64,000 nt of DNA from Kiritimatiellia bacterium (GTDB lineage Bacteria; Verrucomicrobiota; Kiritimatiellia; CAIQIC01; Lenti-01), in NCBI GenBank assembly GCA_028681135.1, contig JAQUJC010000002.1:21892-85891 (forward strand). Direction: 5' to 3'. Below the pieces are notes generated by a model. It saw only the letters and a program-made list of their open reading frames with translations, was not told where the DNA came from and ran no database searches. Shown piece after piece: positions 24,482-61,633 of this stretch. The position numbers and the translations under genes are program-made. How positions within the stretch are numbered: position 1 is the first letter of the stretch; each line of letters opens with the position of its first letter.

Positions 24482-24997
24482 AGGGGTCAGTCCTATGAAA
24501 TGATGTATTGGGAATAATAAGAAGGGAGACGATGTGGGGGAATGGGGACATGCCAAGGAAACCAAGAGTCGAATATGCAGGGGCCGTTTATCATGTAATG
24601 AGCCGCGGGAACCGCCAACAAGCGATTTTCCGAACAGATCGAGACCGAGAGACATTTCTAGATACCTTAGAGGAGGCGTGCGGGCGTACCGGCTGGAAGG
24701 TTCATGCATTTGTATTAATGGGGAATCATTACCATCTGCTTCTGGAAACACCGGAGGCCAATCTTGTGGTGGGTATGCAATGGCTGCAAAGCACATATAC
24801 CAAGCGATTCAATGCTCATCATCGCGAGTGGGGTTATGCGCGTTTCCCAAAGTCAAATACATTAAAACATAGGACTGACCCCTCCTGTTTGCAATGGCTG
24901 CAAAGCACATATACCAAGCGATTCAATGCTCGTCATCGCGAGTGGGGTTATGCGCGTTTCCCAAAGTCATATACATTAAAACATAGGACTGACCCCT
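24482..24997 (+). mobile_element. decayed RAYT/IS200-like unit bracketed by inverted AGGGGTCAGTCCTATG repeats
   Basis: Left copy at 24482-24497. Inverted copies CATAGGACTGACCCCT at 24868-24883 and 24982-24997. The adjoining ATGTATT is also inverted. Confidence 0.65.
24550..24834 (+). pseudogene. N-terminal 95-aa fragment of a Y1/HUH (IS200-like, RAYT-type) transposase
   Basis: MPRKPRVEYAGAVYHVMSRGN...NHYHLLLETP aligns by eye with aa 1-95 of the intact copy at 57769. Similarity stops after RFNAHHREWG, before the catalytic Tyr region. Confidence 0.75.
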
Positions 24998-39572: not shown

Positions 39573-39630
39573 TTAGTTATATTTTAAGGGCTGACCCCAA
39601 CTGTGGGGTCAGCCCTTAAAATATAACTAA
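39573..39630. repeat. family-B REP-like doublet: perfect 26-bp-stem hairpin
   Basis: TTAGTTATATTTTAAGGGCTGACCCC-aactgt-GGGGTCAGCCCTTAAAATATAACTAA. It sits in the divergent intergenic region. Confidence 0.95.
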
Positions 39631-52077: not shown

Positions 52078-52989
52078 TCAGGAGTCGGACATGTCCAGCG
52101 CATCGTCCGAGAACCGTGGTTTTGCCGTGTAGTGGGTCTTGAAGGGCTGCAAGCGGCTGCGCCCGCGTTCGGCGGCATTCTGGCAAGTGACGCACGTCTT
52201 GGCAAAGGGCAATGCCTTGAGGCGCGGACGCTCAATCGGCTTTTCACAGACTTGGCAGGTGCCGTATTCGCCCTCGTCGATCCGGCGAATAGCATCTTCA
52301 ATGGCGTAGACGGAGTCCTGGCGACTGGAGGCCAGGCTCAGCGCCAGTTCACGGTCGAAGTTTTCGGTACCATGATCGGCCATGTGTGTAGAGTGACTGC
52401 TGATGTCGTTGGTGGTATCGAGCGGCGAGCGCTTGAGATTATCGCCGGCCAAGGCGTTGATGTTGCCCTGGATCAGCTCTAGCTGCTTTTGAAGCATGGC
52501 CCGGAACGAGGCCAGTTCTTCTTTGCGGAAGGCGCGGCCCTTGGGGGCGTTGGCCCGAGCCTTTTTTGGGGGGGCCTTGGGGGCTTTAGCCTTTTTCACT
52601 GATGCGGTTTTGGGGGCTGCTGCTTTTTTAGGGACCGCTTTCTTTACCGCAGGTTTCTTGGCGGCGGTCTTTTTTACGGCAGACTTCTTGGCGGCAGACT
52701 TCTTAGCGGTGGTCTTTTTTACTGGAGGCTTTTTTGCGGCGGGTTTCTTCGTCGCAGGCTTCTTCGCCGCAGGCTTTTTTGCGGCAGGCTTCTTCGCCGC
52801 AGGCTTCTTCGCCACAGGCTTCTTCGCCACAGGCTTTTTTGCGGCAGGCTTTTTAACCGCGGTGTTTTTCGCCGTAGTCTTTTTTAGCTGCCCTTTCTTG
52901 GGGGATGTTTTTTTTGCCGCCGGTTTTGCTGCCTTACGGGAGGGGGAGGAGGATTTCTTCGTCGGTTGCGATGCGTTTGTTTTTGCCAT
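52078..52989 (-). CDS. DksA/TraR C4 zinc-finger protein fused to a ~170-aa histone-H1-like Lys/Ala/Pro repeat tail
   Basis: N-terminal (A/V)AKKP pentapeptide repeats. C-terminal coiled coil plus CQVCEKPI-N17-CVTCQ. Confidence 0.8.
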
Positions 52990-53204
52990 GGGACACCTCT
53001 TGTGTAGCTGACCTATACGCTTGCGGATGGCCCGGCCTGCCCGGGGGTATCCGCAAGGGATGGGGTGTCTATCAGGGGGGCGCTGAAAAGTCAACTGTGG
53101 TTCGGCATCGGGGGGCCGGCATTGACCCCATTTTGGGGCAGGGGCGGCTGGGGGGGGGCATTCCGGGATTGTCGCCGCGCGGGCAAGGCCGTAGGATGGG
53201 GCGC

Positions 53205-54101: not shown

Positions 54102-54142
54102 CAGCCGAACGACAACCCCCCATCCGTTTTCGTGCTTTCTAT

Positions 54143-54245
54143 TTTTCCATAGTGTGGAAAAATGGGGCTCGCTTTTTCCATGGTGTGGAAAAAAGACACA
54201 CCATTTTTCCATAGCGTGGAAACTTTTTTTCCACAGTGTGGAAAC
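54143..54245. repeat. family-A array 3: four copies of TTTTCCAYRGYGTGGAAA
   Basis: TTCCA starts at 54145, 54176, 54207 and 54229, giving spacings of 31, 31 and 22 bp. The array ends 21 nt before the pheS ATG. Confidence 0.95.
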
Positions 54246-54265
54246 TTTGGCAGGTAAGGAGATTC

Positions 54266-55308: not shown

Positions 55309-57723
55309 ATGAACATTTTGCTGAGTTGGTTGAAGGACTATGTGGACTTCGAGGATACGGTCGAGGGCTTGGCAGACAAGCTGACGTTCTCCGGAATTGA
55401 GGTCGAGGGCATTACCACCGTAGGCGGCGGAGTGCCAGGCGTGGTGGTTGGTGCCGTCACGGCGATTGAGCGGCATCCGAACGCGGACCGGCTGACGCTT
55501 TGTAAGGTGAATGCTGGCGGGCCGGCAGAACTGACGGTGGTCTGCGGTGCGCCGAACGTGGCGGTGGGCGGGATGTATCCTTTCGCACCGGTGGGCACGG
55601 TGCTGCCGGGCGAATTCACAATCGAGAAACGTAAGGTGCGCGGCGTGCTCAGCGAGGGCATGCTCTGCGCCGAAGACGAATTGGGCATTTCCGACGACCA
55701 CGAAGGCCTGATGGAACTGGACGCGACTTGGGCGCCGGGGACGCCGATGGCCGAGGTCATGGGGCCGCCCGAAACCGTGATCGAGGTCGAGATTACCCCG
55801 AACCGTCCCGACTGCCTGAGCCTGCTGGGGGTGGCGCGCGAAGTGGCGGCCCTGTACGGCACCAAGCTGAAATTGCCCACCATAAATTTGTCGGAGTCGG
55901 ATGTACCGGTGCAGGAAGCAACCAGCGTTGTTGTCGAGGATTTGACGGACTGTCCGCGCTATACCGCGCGCGTTTTACGTCATGTGAAGGTGGGCCCGAG
56001 CCCCGCCTGGATGAAGCGCCGCCTCGAAGCGGCTGGCATTCGGGCCATCAATAATATCGTCGATATTACCAATTATGTGATGCTCGAGTGTGGTCAACCG
56101 CTGCATGCCTTTGACCAAAAGTGGCTGGCGGAAGGCCGGATCGTGGTGCGGCATCCGCGTTCGGGTGACACCATCCTGACGCTCGATGGCGTCGAGCGTA
56201 AACTGGAGCCGGCCATGCTGGTGATTTGCGATGCTGAAAAACCGATGGCGGTGGCGGGGGTGATGGGTGGCGAGAATAGCGGGATTAACGACGCGACGAC
56301 GGAGGTGCTGCTGGAGAGCGCCAACTTCCGTCCCGCGGCTATTCGCGCCACGAGTAAACGGTTGGGGCTGATGTCGGAATCGGCCTATCGCTTCATCCGC
56401 GGGGTCGATGCCGAGGTGGCGGAGTTTGCCAGCCGTCGGGCGGCGCACCTGATGTGCGAGTTGGCGGGTGCGACCCTGCTGGCCGGATGTCTGGATGTGC
56501 GCGCGGAAGCAACCACGTCGTGGAACGTGATCTGCCGCCCGCAGCGCCTGTCCACTCTGCTGGGCTTTTCCGCAACGCCCGAGGATATGGCCCGGGTCTT
56601 TGAGTCCCTGGAATTGACGGTCGTGAGCTGCTCCCCGGAGGCGGTCGAGGTGACCGTGCCGTCTTTCCGCGCCGACCTGATGCGCGAAGCGGACCTGATC
56701 GAGGAATATGCGCGGCTGCACCTGAAGGCGTTGCCGCCGGTGCGCTCAATGGCGACCATCGTGCCCGATGCCGATGACCAACCGGCGCAGGCGCAGGCGC
56801 GGCTGCGTGATGTGCTCGTCGGCCTGGGCCTGCAGCAGATCATGAACTATAGCTTTTTGGCCGAGGACCTCCTGGACCTGCTGAACAAAGACAGTGCCCC
56901 AGAGCGCGTGAAGTTGGCCAATCCGTTGACCGCCGACCATACCGTGCTGCGCGATTCACTCCTGCCTCAGATGGTCGAGACGATCGGACTGAACGTGTCC
57001 CGCCAGGTGGACGAAGTGGCCTTTTTCGAGACCGGGCGGGTGTTTCGCCAGGGCCCGGAGAATCTGCCGGCCGAACAGGATCATATCGCGATTGGCTTGT
57101 TGGGGCCCGTGGGACGGACCGGTCTGGAACGCTTCCAGCCCGTGAGCGAACGGGATATGATGTTGTGGATCAAGGGACTCTGGGAGCAGGCGGCCGCGGC
57201 GCTCCAGTTGCGTGGGGCCTCGCTGCAACCAGCCGACCGCCCCTGGAGTGAGCCGGGGAGGGGGCTGGAGATTGTGACGGCCGACGAAGTCATCGGCTGG
57301 CTGGGGGTGCTGAATGGCGCCATTGCCAAGGAATGGCGCATTCACGAACCGGTGGGGTTGCTGGAAGCAGCCGTGCACCCGCTGCTGAAAGATGTGGGCG
57401 CCCTTCCCCAACTGACTCCGCCGCCGACCTATCCGAGCATTCGCCGCGACGTGGCCTTGATCGTCGCTGCGGACGTGCGCCACGAGCAGGTGCTGGAGGT
57501 CGCGCGCGCAGCGGCCCCCGCAGAACTCGAAGCCATCGAACTCTTCGACGTCTACCAAGGAAAAAATCTGGGCGAAGGCCGCAAGAGTATGGCCTATGCC
57601 TTTACCTATCGCGCCCCAGCCGGCACCCTCACCGATGAGGCCGCCAACGCCTTCCAAGAAAAAGTAAATACCGCCTTGAAAGCACACCTCCCCGCCGACA
57701 TCCGCGATGGGGTCAGCCCTTGA
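55309..57723 (+). CDS. pheT: phenylalanine--tRNA ligase beta subunit
   Basis: MNILLSWLKDYV start, tRNA-binding OB domain, and B3/4, B5 and FDX-ACB regions. The last 4 codons and the TGA stop lie inside the left inverted repeat of the RAYT unit. Confidence 0.95.
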   Translation: MNILLSWLKDYVDFEDTVEGLADKLTFSGIEVEGITTVGGGVPGVVVGAVTAIERHPNADRLTLCKVNAGGPAELTVVCGAPNVAVGGMYPFAPVGTVLPGEFTIEKRKVRGVLSEGMLCAEDELGISDDHEGLMELDATWAPGTPMAEVMGPPETVIEVEITPNRPDCLSLLGVAREVAALYGTKLKLPTINLSESDVPVQEATSVVVEDLTDCPRYTARVLRHVKVGPSPAWMKRRLEAAGIRAINNIVDITNYVMLECGQPLHAFDQKWLAEGRIVVRHPRSGDTILTLDGVERKLEPAMLVICDAEKPMAVAGVMGGENSGINDATTEVLLESANFRPAAIRATSKRLGLMSESAYRFIRGVDAEVAEFASRRAAHLMCELAGATLLAGCLDVRAEATTSWNVICRPQRLSTLLGFSATPEDMARVFESLELTVVSCSPEAVEVTVPSFRADLMREADLIEEYARLHLKALPPVRSMATIVPDADDQPAQAQARLRDVLVGLGLQQIMNYSFLAEDLLDLLNKDSAPERVKLANPLTADHTVLRDSLLPQMVETIGLNVSRQVDEVAFFETGRVFRQGPENLPAEQDHIAIGLLGPVGRTGLERFQPVSERDMMLWIKGLWEQAAAALQLRGASLQPADRPWSEPGRGLEIVTADEVIGWLGVLNGAIAKEWRIHEPVGLLEAAVHPLLKDVGALPQLTPPPTYPSIRRDVALIVAADVRHEQVLEVARAAAPAELEAIELFDVYQGKNLGEGRKSMAYAFTYRAPAGTLTDEAANAFQEKVNTALKAHLPADIRDGVSP

Positions 57724-58768
57724 ATCTTGAATCTTGACGGGGGGGGGAGAAGCCGTCATGATTGCGTCATGGCCAGAAAACCCAGGGCGTTGATCAAGGG
57801 CGGTATTTACCATGTGACCAGCCGAGGAAACGAACGGCAGGCCATCTTTCGAGACGACCAGGATCGGGAGCAGTTTCTTGAAAGCGTGGCGGACAGCGCG
57901 GTAATTGATCAGGTGCGCGTGTATTTGTATTGCCTGATGCCCAACCATTTTCACCTGTTGGTGGAGACACCGCAGGGGAATCTGGATCGCTTCATGGGCC
58001 GCCTGTTGACTGGCTACACGGTCTATTTCAATCGCCGCCACCAGCGTGTGGGACATCTGATGCAGGGACGCTATGGTGCGCAGGTCGTGGAAGGTAACGA
58101 TTACCTGCTGAAATTGAGTCGCTATATTCATCTCAATCCGGTGCAGGTTCATGATATCAGGGAATGGCCGTTGACTGAACGGCTGCGCCTGTTGCGGAAC
58201 TATCGCTGGAGCAGTTTCCGGGAGTATGCGGGCACCGCAAAGCTCAGCGGCTGGTTAGCCATGGGGCCGGTGCTGGCCATGATCACGGGAGGGAACGCGG
58301 CAAACCAGAATAAGACCTATGCCCATTATGTTGAATCAGGCCTGGCGAAGACCGACGACGATTTCGTCCGCCTGATGGATGAACGCGGGGTGGCTATCGG
58401 GTCGGATAGCTTTATCGAAACCATAAAAAATCTGCATGGACAGAAGGCAGCCGAATCTCTGAAACGCGAAGATGTGTCGTTCCGCCAGATACGAATCCAC
58501 AAAAGCGTAACGGAAGTGGAAGCCGCCGTTCAGGAGATCATCGGAGATCGCTGGGGGCAATTCGAGGCCTATAAAGCAGGGCGGGTGGTGCGCGGATTCA
58601 CGGCCTGGGCCTTGCGAAAATATGCGGGACTGACGCAGCGGGAAATCGCTGATCGCGTCCGCGTGGGAACAGGGTCGGCTGTCAGCCACATGATCAGAAG
58701 TGCGATGGCGTCGTCCGAGGTGGTGGCGTGGCAGCAGGCGCTAGATTCAAGATTCAAGGGCTGACCCC
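57709..58768 (+). mobile_element. RAYT-type unit: Y1/HUH transposase gene bracketed by inverted repeats (29 nt left arm, 26 nt matching)
   Basis: Left arm GGGGTCAGCCCTTGAATCTTGAATCTTGA (57709-57737). The right arm AGATTCAAGATTCAAGGGCTGACCCC (58743-58768) is its exact reverse complement over 26 nt. Confidence 0.85.
57769..58764 (+). CDS. REP-associated-type Y1 (HUH) transposase with C-terminal HTH domain
   Basis: IYHVTSRGN, HUH motif NHFHLLVET, catalytic Tyr context SRYIHLNPV. The C-terminal GLTQREIADRVRVGTGSAVSHMI is HTH-like. The stop lies inside the right inverted repeat. Confidence 0.8.
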   Translation: MARKPRALIKGGIYHVTSRGNERQAIFRDDQDREQFLESVADSAVIDQVRVYLYCLMPNHFHLLVETPQGNLDRFMGRLLTGYTVYFNRRHQRVGHLMQGRYGAQVVEGNDYLLKLSRYIHLNPVQVHDIREWPLTERLRLLRNYRWSSFREYAGTAKLSGWLAMGPVLAMITGGNAANQNKTYAHYVESGLAKTDDDFVRLMDERGVAIGSDSFIETIKNLHGQKAAESLKREDVSFRQIRIHKSVTEVEAAVQEIIGDRWGQFEAYKAGRVVRGFTAWALRKYAGLTQREIADRVRVGTGSAVSHMIRSAMASSEVVAWQQALDSRFKG

Positions 58769-58783
58769 AATGGGGAGGGGGCG

Positions 58784-61594
58784 ATGAAAGTGACCAATCG
58801 GTCTCCGGCTGCTGAGAAGATACGCATCTTCCGCGCCTTGTTTCGGGGACGGGAAGACGTGTACCCCCGGCGGTTCGAAAGCGTGAAGACCGGACGCTCG
58901 GGATATCAGCCCGCGTGCGCCAATGAATGGAATCGGCTTTTTTGCGACAAACCAAAAGTGAAGTGCGGCGCGTGTCCGAACCGGCGGTTCATGTCGGTGA
59001 CGGACGAGGAAGTGAGATGGCATTTAACGGGAAGGGATAAGTTTGGCAAACCCTTCGTGATGGGGGTATATCCGCTCCTGGCGAACGAGCACTGCTGGTT
59101 TTTGGCGGCGGATTTCGACAAGGAATCGTGGCGTGAGGATATCGCGGCCGTGGCCGCGATTTGTCGGGAACGAGACATCCCGGTGGCGGTGGAGCGGTCG
59201 CGGTCCGGCAACGGAGCCCACCTCTGGTTCTTTTTCAATCAGCCTGTGGCGGCACGGCTGGCGCGCGAATTTGGCTCGGTTTTGCTAACCGCGACGATGG
59301 AACACTATCCTGACGTGGGGCTGGATTCGTATGATCGCCTATTTCCAAACCAAGATACGATGCCGAAGGGGGGGGTAGGGAATCTGATCGCCTTGCCTTT
59401 GCAGAAAATGGCGCGAGATAACGGCAATAGCGTGTTTCTGGATGAACAGTTTCAGCCCTATGAAGATCAATGGGCATTCTTGAGCGGGGTGCGGCGGCTC
59501 ACAATAGGAGATGTGAACCGCATCGTTGAACCCGCGCGGCGCGAGAATCTCATTTTGGCGGTGGATGAAGTGTTGTCCGAAGAAAGCGACACCCCTTGGC
59601 TTTTACCGCCTTCGCGGGCGCGAGTATTGCGTCCCATAATAGGCCCCTTGCCAGAAGAAATCGAAGTGGTGTTAAGCGATCAGCTTTACATTTTGAAAGA
59701 GGGCTTGAACCCCATGTTACGGGGCCGGTTGATTCGGCTGGCGGCATTTGCAAATCCGGAGTTCCACAAAGCCCAGGCGATGCGGATGAATACCTATGGC
59801 AAGTCTCGGGTCATTTGTTGTGCGGAGGACTATCCCCAGCATGTAGCGTTGCCGCGGGGGTGCCTGGACCGCATTCGCATGTGCCTGAAGGAATGCGGAG
59901 TGCGGATGCGCTTGCGGGACGAGCGAAACCCAGGAACGCCGCTGGCGGCAACATTCTGCGGAGAATTGCGCCCTGAGCAGGCCTTGGCCGGTAAGGCGAT
60001 GTTGGCACATGACACCGGGGTTCTGGCGGCTGGCACGGCTTTCGGAAAAACGGTTTTGGCGGCGTGGCTGATCGCCCAGCGCGGGGTCAATACGCTAGTG
60101 CTGGTGAATCGCCGCCAGTTGCAGGCGCAATGGGTGGCGCAGTTGGCGACGTTCCTGGACATCCCCCAAAATGAGATTGGTCGGATTGGCGGTGGCAAGC
60201 GGCAGATTACAGGCACGTTGGAGGTAGCCCTGCTCCAGAGCCTTGGGCGCAAGGGCGATGTGGACGACATCGTAGCCAACTACGGCCACCTGATTGTTGA
60301 CGAATGCCATACGATTTCCGCCCCAGCATTTGAACGGGTCGCGCGGCGTTGTAAGGCACGCTATGTGGCCGGGCTTTCGGCGACGCCGGTCCGTAAGGAC
60401 GGTCATCACCCCATCATATTTATGCAATGCGGGCCGCTGCGGCATCGGGTGAATCCCGCTAAAATGCGGCAAATTCAATCGTTTCGCCACACCGTGTGGG
60501 TGCGTCCCACGACTTATAGCGGGGATTCATTCCTGGGCGCGGAGAGTCAGCCGCCCCCTTTTCACGCGCTGTGCGATGATTTGTCCCACAACGAAGCGCG
60601 CAATCGCCTGATTGTGGCGGACGTGTTGGCAGCGGTGAAAGAGGGGCGCTCACCAGTGGTGTTGACAGAACGCAGAAACCATCTCGCCGAGTTGGCGGCA
60701 CGGCTGGATGGGGCGGTTCGGCATTTGGTCATAATGCGCGGGGGGATGGGGCGGAAACAACTGGCGGCCATTGACGCGCAACTGGCCGCGATTCCGGATA
60801 CCGAACCGCGTGTCCTGTTGGCAACCGGCAGTTATTTGGGCGAGGGCTTCGACGATGCGCGCCTGGATACGCTGTTTTTGACCATGCCGATCTCGTGGCG
60901 CGGTCGCATTGCGCAGTACGCCGGGCGGCTGCACCGGGCCCATGCCGGGAAGCGGGAGGTTCGGATTTGTGACTATGCCGACCTGAATGTGCCGATGCTG
61001 GCGCGGATGTTCGACCGCCGTTGCAAGGGGTATCGCGCGCTAGGCTATTCCATTCTGTTGCCGCTGAAAACCGTGCCGGGCTGGCCAGAGGAAGTGCCGA
61101 TGCCGGTGTCATCGGGATGGCAGGAAACCTATGCGGATAGTGTGCGAAGGCTGGTGCGCGACGGGGTTGAATCGGAGTTGGCGGGCTTGTTTGTCGAGGC
61201 CACACAACGAAAGGTTCCAGAGGGGATGACGACGGGAGTGGCACGCGCCCGCAGCGCAGTGGAAGCTTTTCTCTATCGCCGACTGGAAACGTTGCCGGCG
61301 ACTTCTGGGCATTTCCAGTTGAATGCTCAATTGGGTATTCCGTTCGATGGGACGGGGGGCATGGAGGTGGATTTGTTGTGCCCCGAGCGACGGTTGGTGA
61401 TCGAGATCGATGGCCCGCACCATTTTGCCGGGGCAGAGGCCTATCGGCGGGATCGACGTAAGGATGCGTTGCTGCAGGAGAATGGGTATCATGTGCTGCG
61501 GTTTCTCAGTGACGATATTGCGGATCGGTTGGGGGAGGTCTTGGATGCCATTCTACGGGCATGGACTTCATTGGGGTCAGCCCTTAAAATATGA
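58784..61594 (+). CDS. 936-aa fusion: AEP (primase-polymerase)-like domain + SF2 DExH helicase + DUF559/Vsr-like endonuclease
   Basis: AEP motifs: AADFD (DxD), SRSGNGAHLWFFF (sGxGxH), DSYDRLFP. Cys4 cluster C45/C54/C61/C64. Helicase motifs: GTAFGKT, VDECH, SAT, QYAGRLHR. C-terminus: VDLLCPERRLVIEIDGPHH...GYHVLRF (DUF559). Confidence 0.8.
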   Translation: MKVTNRSPAAEKIRIFRALFRGREDVYPRRFESVKTGRSGYQPACANEWNRLFCDKPKVKCGACPNRRFMSVTDEEVRWHLTGRDKFGKPFVMGVYPLLANEHCWFLAADFDKESWREDIAAVAAICRERDIPVAVERSRSGNGAHLWFFFNQPVAARLAREFGSVLLTATMEHYPDVGLDSYDRLFPNQDTMPKGGVGNLIALPLQKMARDNGNSVFLDEQFQPYEDQWAFLSGVRRLTIGDVNRIVEPARRENLILAVDEVLSEESDTPWLLPPSRARVLRPIIGPLPEEIEVVLSDQLYILKEGLNPMLRGRLIRLAAFANPEFHKAQAMRMNTYGKSRVICCAEDYPQHVALPRGCLDRIRMCLKECGVRMRLRDERNPGTPLAATFCGELRPEQALAGKAMLAHDTGVLAAGTAFGKTVLAAWLIAQRGVNTLVLVNRRQLQAQWVAQLATFLDIPQNEIGRIGGGKRQITGTLEVALLQSLGRKGDVDDIVANYGHLIVDECHTISAPAFERVARRCKARYVAGLSATPVRKDGHHPIIFMQCGPLRHRVNPAKMRQIQSFRHTVWVRPTTYSGDSFLGAESQPPPFHALCDDLSHNEARNRLIVADVLAAVKEGRSPVVLTERRNHLAELAARLDGAVRHLVIMRGGMGRKQLAAIDAQLAAIPDTEPRVLLATGSYLGEGFDDARLDTLFLTMPISWRGRIAQYAGRLHRAHAGKREVRICDYADLNVPMLARMFDRRCKGYRALGYSILLPLKTVPGWPEEVPMPVSSGWQETYADSVRRLVRDGVESELAGLFVEATQRKVPEGMTTGVARARSAVEAFLYRRLETLPATSGHFQLNAQLGIPFDGTGGMEVDLLCPERRLVIEIDGPHHFAGAEAYRRDRRKDALLQENGYHVLRFLSDDIADRLGEVLDAILRAWTSLGSALKI

Positions 61595-61633
61595 ATTTGA
61601 TGCTAAATTCATATTTTAAGGGCTGACCCCAAT
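61570..61633. repeat. family-B REP-like doublet: 29-bp-stem hairpin
   Basis: ATTGGGGTCAGCCCTTAAAATATGAATTT-gatgct-AAATTCATATTTTAAGGGCTGACCCCAAT. The left arm encodes the last 8 codons and the TGA stop of the helicase gene. Confidence 0.95.

Follow-up and report, generated by a model that had tools for sequence, protein, structure and literature searches.

A nuclease-fused relative of the IS-excision enhancer IEE in a Kiritimatiellia bacterium

Which process is served by a bacterial protein that carries a putative DNA polymerase, a DNA motor and a nuclease on a single chain? The question is raised by a gene in a 64,000-nt stretch of DNA from a Kiritimatiellia bacterium (GenBank assembly GCA_028681135.1, contig JAQUJC010000002.1, positions 21,892 to 85,891), here called the window. 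The complete open reading frame (ORF) at 58784..61594 on the + strand starts with ATG, has a GGAGG 8-9 nt 5' of the start codon and encodes 936 aa, identical to a protein from a metagenome-assembled genome of a Kiritimatiellae bacterium at NCBI. The original prediction, made from the letters alone, divided the product into an archaeo-eukaryotic primase (AEP)-like domain, a superfamily 2 (SF2) helicase and a DUF559 nuclease, and proposed either a replication engine of a mobile element or an immunity effector that targets nucleic acids. Judging from its sequence, the protein is an enzyme of the family of IEE, the insertion sequence (IS)-excision enhancer of E. coli, with an extra tail of ~180 aa that bears the predicted nuclease.

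The division into three modules is borne out by Pfam, which matches AEP, helicase and DUF559 far beyond chance, and each of the motifs named in the original prediction is located in the ORF. The AEP domain holds the DxD in AADFD (aa 108-112), SGNGAH (aa 141-146) and the third acidic motif in YDRLFPNQD (aa 183-191), together with the Cys4 pattern C-x8-C-x6-C-x2-C (aa 45-64). The ATPase has DECH (aa 506-509), SAT (aa 532-534) and, as QxxGRxxR, QYAGRLHR (aa 711-718); its Walker A motif, previously given as GFGKT, reads AFGKT (aa 419-423). The nuclease carries EIDGPHH (aa 874-880), the EIDG.HH motif. The catalytic residues of all three modules are invariant in an alignment of 51 sequences and conserved to at least 97% in an alignment of 75 genome-derived homologues, and nothing in the sequence suggests an inactivated domain. 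The full-length AlphaFold model has a mean predicted local distance difference test score (pLDDT) of 74. Searched as fragments against Pfam, aa 245-392 and aa 740-858 gave no match even at E 10.

First, we focus on the AEP primase-polymerase domain (aa ~6-255; 58799..59548, + strand), which belongs to the Z1568-like or AEP-TOTE family and covers the whole profile of Pfam PF22548 (E 2.6e-96, 322 bits). Motif A (D110xD112), motif B (S141-G-N-G-A-H146) and motif C (D184) are invariant in the family. Among sequences of known structure the domain matches MpCAPP (PDB 7nqd, E 2.8e-10). A separate AlphaFold model of aa 1-290 (pLDDT 79, predicted TM-score 0.78) finds the Prim-Pol domain of CAPP in the same entry as its best Foldseek match (E 1.3e-12, TM 0.78, 22% identity), followed by mycobacterial Prim-PolC and then the LigD PolDom. 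The AEP fold, the absence of which was to have refuted the original prediction, is thus present. Inside the domain lies a Cys4 insert (C45, C54, C61, C64; 58916..58975, + strand), predicted to bind zinc, whose four cysteines are invariant in 51 homologues and also found in E. coli IEE; the insert is modelled poorly (pLDDT <55), so that its fold is not established. While the CRISPR-associated Prim-Pol CAPP_A/MpCAPP is the best structural match to this domain (Zabrady 2021, PMC8211822), the window protein has no TPR or PriCT domain and adds a nuclease, and its NCBIfam PrimPol_Msp score (85.8 bits) stays under the cutoff of 200 for a CAPP equivalog. The locus also differs from that of CAPP in having neither cas genes nor a CRISPR array nearby: the annotated neighbours include no cas gene, the 54-64 kb part of the window holds no CRISPR-like repeats, and Cas families are missing from the 25 most frequent PADLOC matches of homologue neighbours. 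Among the relatives of CAPP outside CRISPR systems, the most prevalent architecture includes a putative helicase domain (Zabrady 2021, PMC8211822), and the comparison with CAPP extends to the "CAPP-helicase" type.

The relative that informs this architecture most is IEE of E. coli O157, the sole characterised member of the family. To our knowledge, IEE is the only bacterial protein dedicated to IS removal; it is the subject of Kusumoto (2011) and Calvo (2023). IEE (ECs1305, 786 aa) is assigned to the Z1568-like AEP family (Calvo 2023, PMC9943667). It consists of an N-terminal Z1568-like AEP domain and a C-terminal SF2 helicase-like domain, with catalytic residues D142, D144, H178 and D216, Walker lysine K451 and arginine finger R735, and it stimulates the transposase-dependent excision of elements of the IS3, IS1 and IS30 families and also adjacent deletions (PMC9943667). 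Its AEP domain polymerises DNA in a Mn-dependent and error-prone manner; the enzyme joins 3' overhangs with at least 4 nt of microhomology (microhomology-mediated end-joining, MMEJ), for which both domains are required, and it hydrolyses ATP in response to DNA but without unwinding it (PMC9943667). In the model of these authors, end resection is performed by unidentified cellular nucleases (PMC9943667), whereas a rival model invokes primer realignment (strand switching) during the copy-out step. The original prediction had described the AEP family as lacking biochemical data, which is wrong for the family given the genetics and biochemistry of E. coli IEE (PMC9943667), and its choice between replication engine and immunity effector overlooks the documented transposase-dependent IS excision and microhomology end-joining.

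In a DNA search of 5,426 complete E. coli genomes, the window gene found a match in 735. The E. coli gene examined (locus L177, 5367-7727; 786 aa) carries the published IEE residues Y128, D142, D144, H178, D216, K451 and R735. BLASTP aligns the window protein collinearly with E. coli IEE over 748 aa (46% identity, 64% positives, E = 0), pairing aa 11-758 with IEE aa 49-778. The window equivalents of the IEE residues are D110, D112, H146, D184, K422 and R715; the four AEP catalytic residues keep a constant offset of 32 positions, and the same Asp/His/Asp set, Walker A Lys, Arg finger and Cys4 insert are found in both proteins. The collinear identity, the constant offset and the common Cys4 insert place the window protein in the IEE family. 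The two proteins differ at both ends. IEE has an N-terminal extension of ~40 aa that the window protein lacks, and it ends 48 aa after motif VI, whereas 218 aa follow in the window protein, made up of a conserved linker and the DUF559 domain. The two-domain layout of IEE (~786 aa, ending after the helicase) hence does not describe the window protein.

The motor offers a second comparison. A flexible linker joins the AEP domain to a conserved, well-modelled pre-helicase domain (aa ~290-390; 59651..59953, + strand; pLDDT 74-93) with conserved stretches such as AAFxNPEF and PRGC and no Pfam assignment. The SF2 ATPase/translocase core that follows (aa ~391-755; 59954..61048, + strand) is XPB-like in Pfam (ResIII, E 3e-15; DEAD, E 3e-8), in its match to a PDB sequence (XPBII, 6p4f, E 1.3e-13) and in Foldseek searches with the full-length model, where XPB/TFIIH and archaeal StoXPB-Bax1 rank top (E 2e-18 to 1e-17, 500-546 columns). 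As these alignments are longer than two RecA lobes, the pre-helicase domain may, according to the model, be the counterpart of the XPB N-terminal domain. Motifs I (AFGKT, 419-423), II (DECH, 506-509), III (SAT, 532-534) and VI (QYAGRLHR, 711-718) of the core are invariant. SAT is followed by RKD, at the position of the RED motif of XPB. Although XPB is the best fold match, the NCBIfam XPB score (56 bits against a cutoff of 610) does not make the protein an XPB equivalog. Both the sequence and the fold of this module fit a translocase on duplex DNA that would not unwind it, which is consistent with the lack of unwinding by IEE.

Archaeal XPB-Bax1 (PDB 6p4o, 6p4f) is the best match to aa ~290-755 in fold and sequence, and it likewise pairs the motor with a nuclease. 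Bax1 is, however, a separate protein, whereas the window nuclease is fused and of the Vsr/DUF559 type, and an AEP polymerase is attached in addition. The parallel with this archaeal repair machine speaks for a host DNA repair enzyme unrelated to mobile DNA, which would nick, unwind and fill in (by a very-short-patch or nucleotide excision repair-like process) or join ends by microhomology. Vsr-type nucleases and the AEP polymerases LigD and Prim-PolC are repair enzymes and both occur among the structural matches, and IEE as well as a PrimPol associated with prokaryotic Argonaute perform MMEJ in vitro. Conversely, the NCBIfam scores for the repair proteins XPB and RadD both lie far under their cutoffs; the distribution of the gene, described below, bears on this explanation further.

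C-terminal to the motor, the window protein leaves the part shared with IEE, which ends at the position aligned to ~aa 758. The first element of the tail is a conserved segment (aa ~756-820; GWPxxVPxP...W...Y...RLxxDG; 61049..61243, + strand), recognised by column conservation, that is missing from E. coli IEE. It has the highest mean column conservation of the whole protein (0.795), a pLDDT <50 in the AlphaFold model and no profile match, and may serve to dock or regulate the nuclease. The second element is a DUF559/Vsr-like endonuclease domain of the PD-(D/E)xK superfamily (aa ~821-930; 61244..61573, + strand), in which E861, D863, E874, D876, G877 and H880 are invariant in 51 homologues. 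Pfam DUF559 matches the full protein at E 1.3e-11 (44.8 bits, the cutoff being 20.6) and the fragment at E 2.5e-13. The MTES_1575 REase profile matches the domain at E 2.3e-6, and a PDB sequence search with the window protein matched a DUF559 structure at E 4e-4. With the domain as query, PDB entries 3hrl, an endonuclease-like protein (E 6e-5), and, weakly, 3r3p, annotated "Mobile intron protein" (E 0.035), were found.

Is the fused nuclease a peculiarity of this gene? An exhaustive search with the AEP domain, clustered at 50% identity, yielded 7,506 clusters for E <= 1e-3 and 1,342 for E <= 1e-30, and we surveyed the architecture of 46 full-length, diverse cluster representatives. AEP-TOTE and ResIII occur together in all 46. 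About 21 of them stop 34-68 aa past motif VI, as IEE does, and ~20 have a tail of 177-220 aa, in which Pfam finds PLDc_2 in nine cases and DUF559 in two, the rest being without assignment. With PLDc_2 or DUF559 tails attached to a universal AEP and ResIII pair, the nuclease is, by these domain assignments, a recurrent and interchangeable add-on to a constant polymerase-motor core of the IEE type. The DUF559 form makes up all 120 best database hits (60-87% identity) and occurs in no fewer than 586 of the GTDB species representatives. Both the family and its combination of AEP with SF2 ATPase are known and partly characterised, and automatic annotation already shows the architecture of three domains, for example as "helicase/very-short-patch-repair endonuclease" at JGI. 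We found no study of the nuclease-fused form and nothing specific in the literature on a defence system of AEP, helicase and Vsr; PMC9943667 does not mention nuclease-fused IEE relatives, nor did a term search of the Chandler preprint find any.

Does the enzyme act alone or as part of a system? On an annotated contig of 14 kb with the gene (~5.5 kb on either side), the gene order is SDR, pheS, pheT, Y1 transposase, the 936-aa gene, CBM21-EEP hydrolase, peptidase, hydrolase and methyltransferase. A census of 80 homologous loci, drawn from the GTDB species representatives with the DUF559 form, likewise reveals no conserved neighbour. The largest BLAST cluster of recurrent neighbours within four genes comprises only seven loci; the 147 immediate neighbours, mostly housekeeping genes, represent 114 Pfam families of three members at most; and their orientation is mixed across loci. 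The gene is hence a stand-alone unit and the protein works alone.

This organisation bears on the name of the N-terminal domain, which the original prediction gave as that of a "TOTE conflict system AEP". The label exists as a database name, namely for PF22548 and, in the PGAP annotation, in E. coli. In the definition of Aravind, Iyer & Burroughs (2022), as quoted in PMC12458937, TOTE stands for TPR, OB, TBP and Effector. That the window protein is the effector of such a conflict system, as the Pfam and NCBI names suggest, would agree with its full-length match to PF22548 and with the naming of some homologues by NCBI. The likeness of window domain and TOTE systems ends there, with the partner genes missing around the window gene and at the 80 loci: no TPR-OB (cold-shock) or TBP gene lies on the 14-kb contig, none forms a recurrent cluster within four genes of the 80 loci, and the Pfam census shows no TPR, cold-shock domain (CSD) or TBP among the 147 immediate neighbours. 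Moreover, PGAP puts the same name on E. coli IEE, which sits in no TOTE system. We therefore reject a TOTE system at the window locus and regard an effector role within one as highly improbable. With the partner genes absent and the gene standing alone, "TOTE" names a domain family and not a system, and the database label, that on E. coli IEE included, does not imply that a TOTE system is present.

A gene that stands alone might still belong to the core genome or move between genomes. Pairs of the DUF559 form from different phyla share 66% identity on average and pairs from one phylum 68-72%; in 56 of 73 cases the nearest neighbour comes from the same phylum. Across phyla, window-type genes share ~60-66% identity, compared with 34-40% for the window PheT. 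The far higher conservation of the gene than of PheT indicates, at the level of sequence comparison, that it crossed phylum boundaries far more recently than the phyla diverged, i.e., that it spread horizontally. A clade of Kiritimatiellia with 73-78% identical PheT gives a closer view. The gene lies directly 3' of pheT in four lineages, separated from it in three (window, L085, L092) by a REP-associated tyrosine transposase (RAYT) gene and in the fourth (L086/L088) by an AAA_14/DUF4143 gene, with 77-83% pairwise identity of the gene among the four. It is absent from the same locus in six of ~10 close relatives (L093-L096, L098, L099), four of which have Zn_ribbon_8-unk235-Dtd directly or almost directly after pheT. 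Filled sites are not monophyletic in the PheT tree, where the filled L085 and the empty L095 (91% PheT identity) are sisters, as are the filled L092 and the empty L099. This pattern implies that the gene was repeatedly and cleanly lost, or else regained, at one site 3' of pheT, and ancestral presence with repeated loss is its simplest reading. On that reading, the pattern marks an accessory gene under strong purifying selection where it is retained. A horizontally spread, patchy accessory gene is a further feature in common with IEE. In the Acidobacteriota, loci L004, L006, L018, L020, L030 and L011 have common stretches of 17-82 nt, 88-100% identical, within 250 nt upstream of the gene, which could represent either a conserved leader or an N-terminal extension of the coding region.

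For the host repair explanation, the strong purifying selection and the housekeeping neighbours are favourable. The absence of the gene from most of the close relatives, and its identity between phyla well above that of PheT, point instead to an accessory and horizontally moving gene and not to core repair. Taking this together with the XPB-Bax1 parallel, we judge a repair function independent of mobile DNA to be unlikely.

The wider family provides the link to mobile elements. The short form without nuclease is carried by 61 plasmids (54-57% identity), many of which are conjugative and most of which come from Rhizobiales and Rhodobacterales. On plasmids of Agrobacterium, Sinorhizobium and Bradyrhizobium, a short IEE-like gene (~795-825 aa) stands beside tniA-tniB-tniQ of the Tn5053/Tn7 type (L084 6230-12274; L083 8398-12274; L175 5794-12334), an association of which we found no description in the literature searched. 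In Agrobacterium it is the fourth same-strand gene after tniA-tniB-tniQ, and in Bradyrhizobium it is convergent to tniABQ, the pair lying between two RHE_PE00001 genes. On plasmids of the Rhodobacterales Dinoroseobacter, Paracoccus and Yoonia, the short gene is followed by three tandem tyrosine-recombinase genes in convergent orientation, 40 nt apart (L082 9833-15748; L173 5833-11213; L176 5833-11750). A strawberry-notch gene of Yoonia is split into two halves, with the short gene and its recombinase trio between them, as expected of a single inserted element. The E. coli IEE gene lies in an IS-rich island beside copies of IS66. Given these settings, the wider IEE family, E. coli IEE included, keeps company with transposition machinery.

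The same settings could be taken to mean that the window protein is itself a replication or mobilisation protein of a mobile element, either a primase-helicase replicase or the product of a single-gene, self-mobilising element whose nuclease would cut a target. PrimPol-helicase fusions of prokaryotes are usually assigned to the replication of mobile elements, the shorter relatives sit on conjugative plasmids beside TniABQ or recombinase trios, the Yoonia arrangement resembles one inserted unit, and the gene has spread between phyla with no obvious vehicle. Against this, the helicase is an XPB-like SF2 enzyme and not of the hexameric SF3, SF4 or DnaB type found in replicases of the pRN1/D5/DUF927 kind. 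None of 50,697 phage genomes encodes a full-length homologue, the matches there being to the helicase part alone (21-29% identity), and the plasmids that carry the short form have replicon clusters of their own as typed by PLSDB. No integrase, transposase or TniABQ genes accompany the 80 loci, and TniA, TniB and TniQ are likewise missing beside the DUF559 form in the window. Inverted repeats flanking the ORF at 68 loci score no better than chance (6.6, compared with 6.0 in mismatched-locus controls). A replicative or self-mobilising role is, on this evidence, very unlikely.

We therefore return to IEE for a working model, in which every activity of the 936-aa protein, the role of its nuclease and its target in vivo are proposed by analogy. 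The model is that of an IEE-type enzyme, with a fused nuclease, acting on DNA intermediates made by mobile elements; it is the explanation that we favour, and we give it an even chance of being correct. The substrate would be broken or branched DNA that arises from mobile elements, for example transposition intermediates. The ATPase module might bind and synapse DNA ends or translocate on duplex DNA without classical unwinding, and the AEP module might then extend microhomology-paired 3' ends, leading to end-joining and strand switching. The fused nuclease would supply in cis the incision or end-processing that the IEE model leaves to nucleases of the cell. As a net effect, mobile DNA would be excised or deleted and the chromosome resealed.

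Several observations weigh against this proposal. The in vivo mechanism of IEE itself is disputed between end-joining of double-strand breaks and strand switching during copy-out. Ten transposase and recombinase probes, a weak test with their proteobacterial origin, had no match in 1.26 Mb of sequence flanking the 80 loci. The AEP domain is structurally nearest to the CRISPR-associated CAPP, some immediate neighbours are defence genes (AbiEii three times, DpdE-like three times, BrxH twice, DrmD twice, mREase_IV and BrxA), and an anti-phage or anti-plasmid role fits the anatomy of the protein equally well.

The last points lead to an explanation in which the protein is a stand-alone, restriction-like enzyme against phages or plasmids. 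Its SF2 motor would translocate on invading DNA and its DUF559 nuclease would cut it, while the AEP domain would convert incoming single-stranded DNA or replication intermediates to substrates, or make aberrant DNA that blocks replication. The PADLOC profile for cas-associated PrimPol, in keeping with the CAPP match, recognises the AEP domain at E 7.7e-86, and in Thermus a PrimPol acts as a barrier against transforming DNA. Defence proteins commonly combine a helicase with a nuclease of the Vsr/DUF559 or PLD kind at the C-terminus, Vsr fusions being carried by ARMADA/Druantia, and the exchange of DUF559 for PLD at this end is typical of effectors. PADLOC matches to Hhe (E 0.016), mREase_IV and PbeA are weak. 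Hhe, the YprA-Vsr fusions of ARMADA/Druantia and the MTES_1575 REases resemble the window protein in having a C-terminal Vsr-like nuclease on an SF2 motor, but only the nuclease domain matches, and weakly, the helicase is of another clade, and none has an AEP domain. Patchiness among close relatives and spread between phyla would also suit a defence gene. On the other hand, none of the family members has a known defence phenotype, and the one characterised, IEE, has a different documented role; no PADLOC system model includes the protein; and the neighbours are chiefly housekeeping genes with no Pfam family recurring beyond the counts given above. Furthermore, the gene has diverged in step with PheT at the one Kiritimatiellia locus (77-83% against 73-78%), which is unusually stable for a defence gene. 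A defence role is, in our estimate, improbable, but it is the main rival of the IEE-type model.

Next, we consider the gene immediately upstream, which is a neighbour and not part of the enzyme. The RAYT/IS200-like Y1 transposase gene at 57727..58764 (+ strand) matches Pfam Y1_Tnp (E 1.7e-12) and scores 67 bits with NCBIfam REP_Tyr_transpos, under the cutoff of 80. It is flanked by inverted copies of a repetitive extragenic palindrome (REP) at 57701-57734 and 58743-58776 (inverted repeat I1, 34 nt, 91% complementary). Downstream, a perfect hairpin of the REPIN type (61570..61633, + strand; inverted repeat I2, 29-nt arms, 6-nt loop, 100% complementary) overlaps the stop codon of the 936-aa gene; its RNA folds with -49.8 kcal/mol (z -11.6), and it probably ends or stabilises the transcript and belongs to the local REP family. 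This dispersed family has the core TGGGGTCAGCCCTT, with copies besides the hairpin at 57708, 58752 and 39582/39604, the last forming a doublet at 39582-39621, 19 kb distant. REPs overlap the 3' ends or stop codons of pheT, the RAYT gene and the 936-aa gene and rewrite the C-termini, and hence the last few residues of the 936-aa protein are not conserved.

The arrangement of REPs and RAYT is kept in the relatives L085 and L092. The original prediction had asked whether a RAYT is recurrently adjacent to homologues. In a tblastn search with the window RAYT, a match lies within 10 kb at three of the 80 loci and is adjacent at one (L036). A second RAYT-like fragment at 24550-24837 in the window (47% identity over 96 aa to the RAYT at 57727-58764) shows such genes to be common or multi-copy in this genome. 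RAYT as a recurrent partner was rejected. We conclude that the adjacency, inherited within the clade and not found elsewhere, is specific to the lineage and has no functional meaning. The pair of RAYT and 936-aa gene lies between inverted REPs in the window and also in L085, whereas in L092 it does not, and one lineage has the AAA_14/DUF4143 gene where the RAYT would be; a REP-bounded mobile unit of the two genes is unproven.

Two further features of the window were noted. Four copies of a ~31-nt unit with the palindrome TTTCCAyrGTGTGGAAA lie at 54142-54256, immediately 5' of pheS, and resemble an array of operators or a further small repeat family. An ORF on the - strand at 52078-53094 has, by eye, a long Lys/Ala/Pro-rich (KKPAAKK) region of histone-H1-like repeats and a four-cysteine C-terminus of the form CxxC...CxxC.

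What would the fusion mean for the family? A C-terminal tail bearing a DUF559 or PLD nuclease is found in about half of the diverse clusters of the IEE family. A bolder version of the model proposed here, which we put forward as a doubtful conjecture, is that the nuclease-fused IEE is an autonomous "cut, synapse and fill" machine that excises or destroys transposons or incoming plasmid and phage DNA independently of a transposase. If true, a single protein, spread horizontally over Verrucomicrobiota, Planctomycetota, Acidobacteriota and other phyla, would provide dedicated immunity against transposable elements, and the fused DUF559 or PLD domain would identify the missing nuclease step of the IEE mechanism. 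The fused nuclease offers a direct experimental route into that mechanism, namely to whether incision belongs to it, and the fusion bears on the question whether bacteria own dedicated anti-transposon enzymes.

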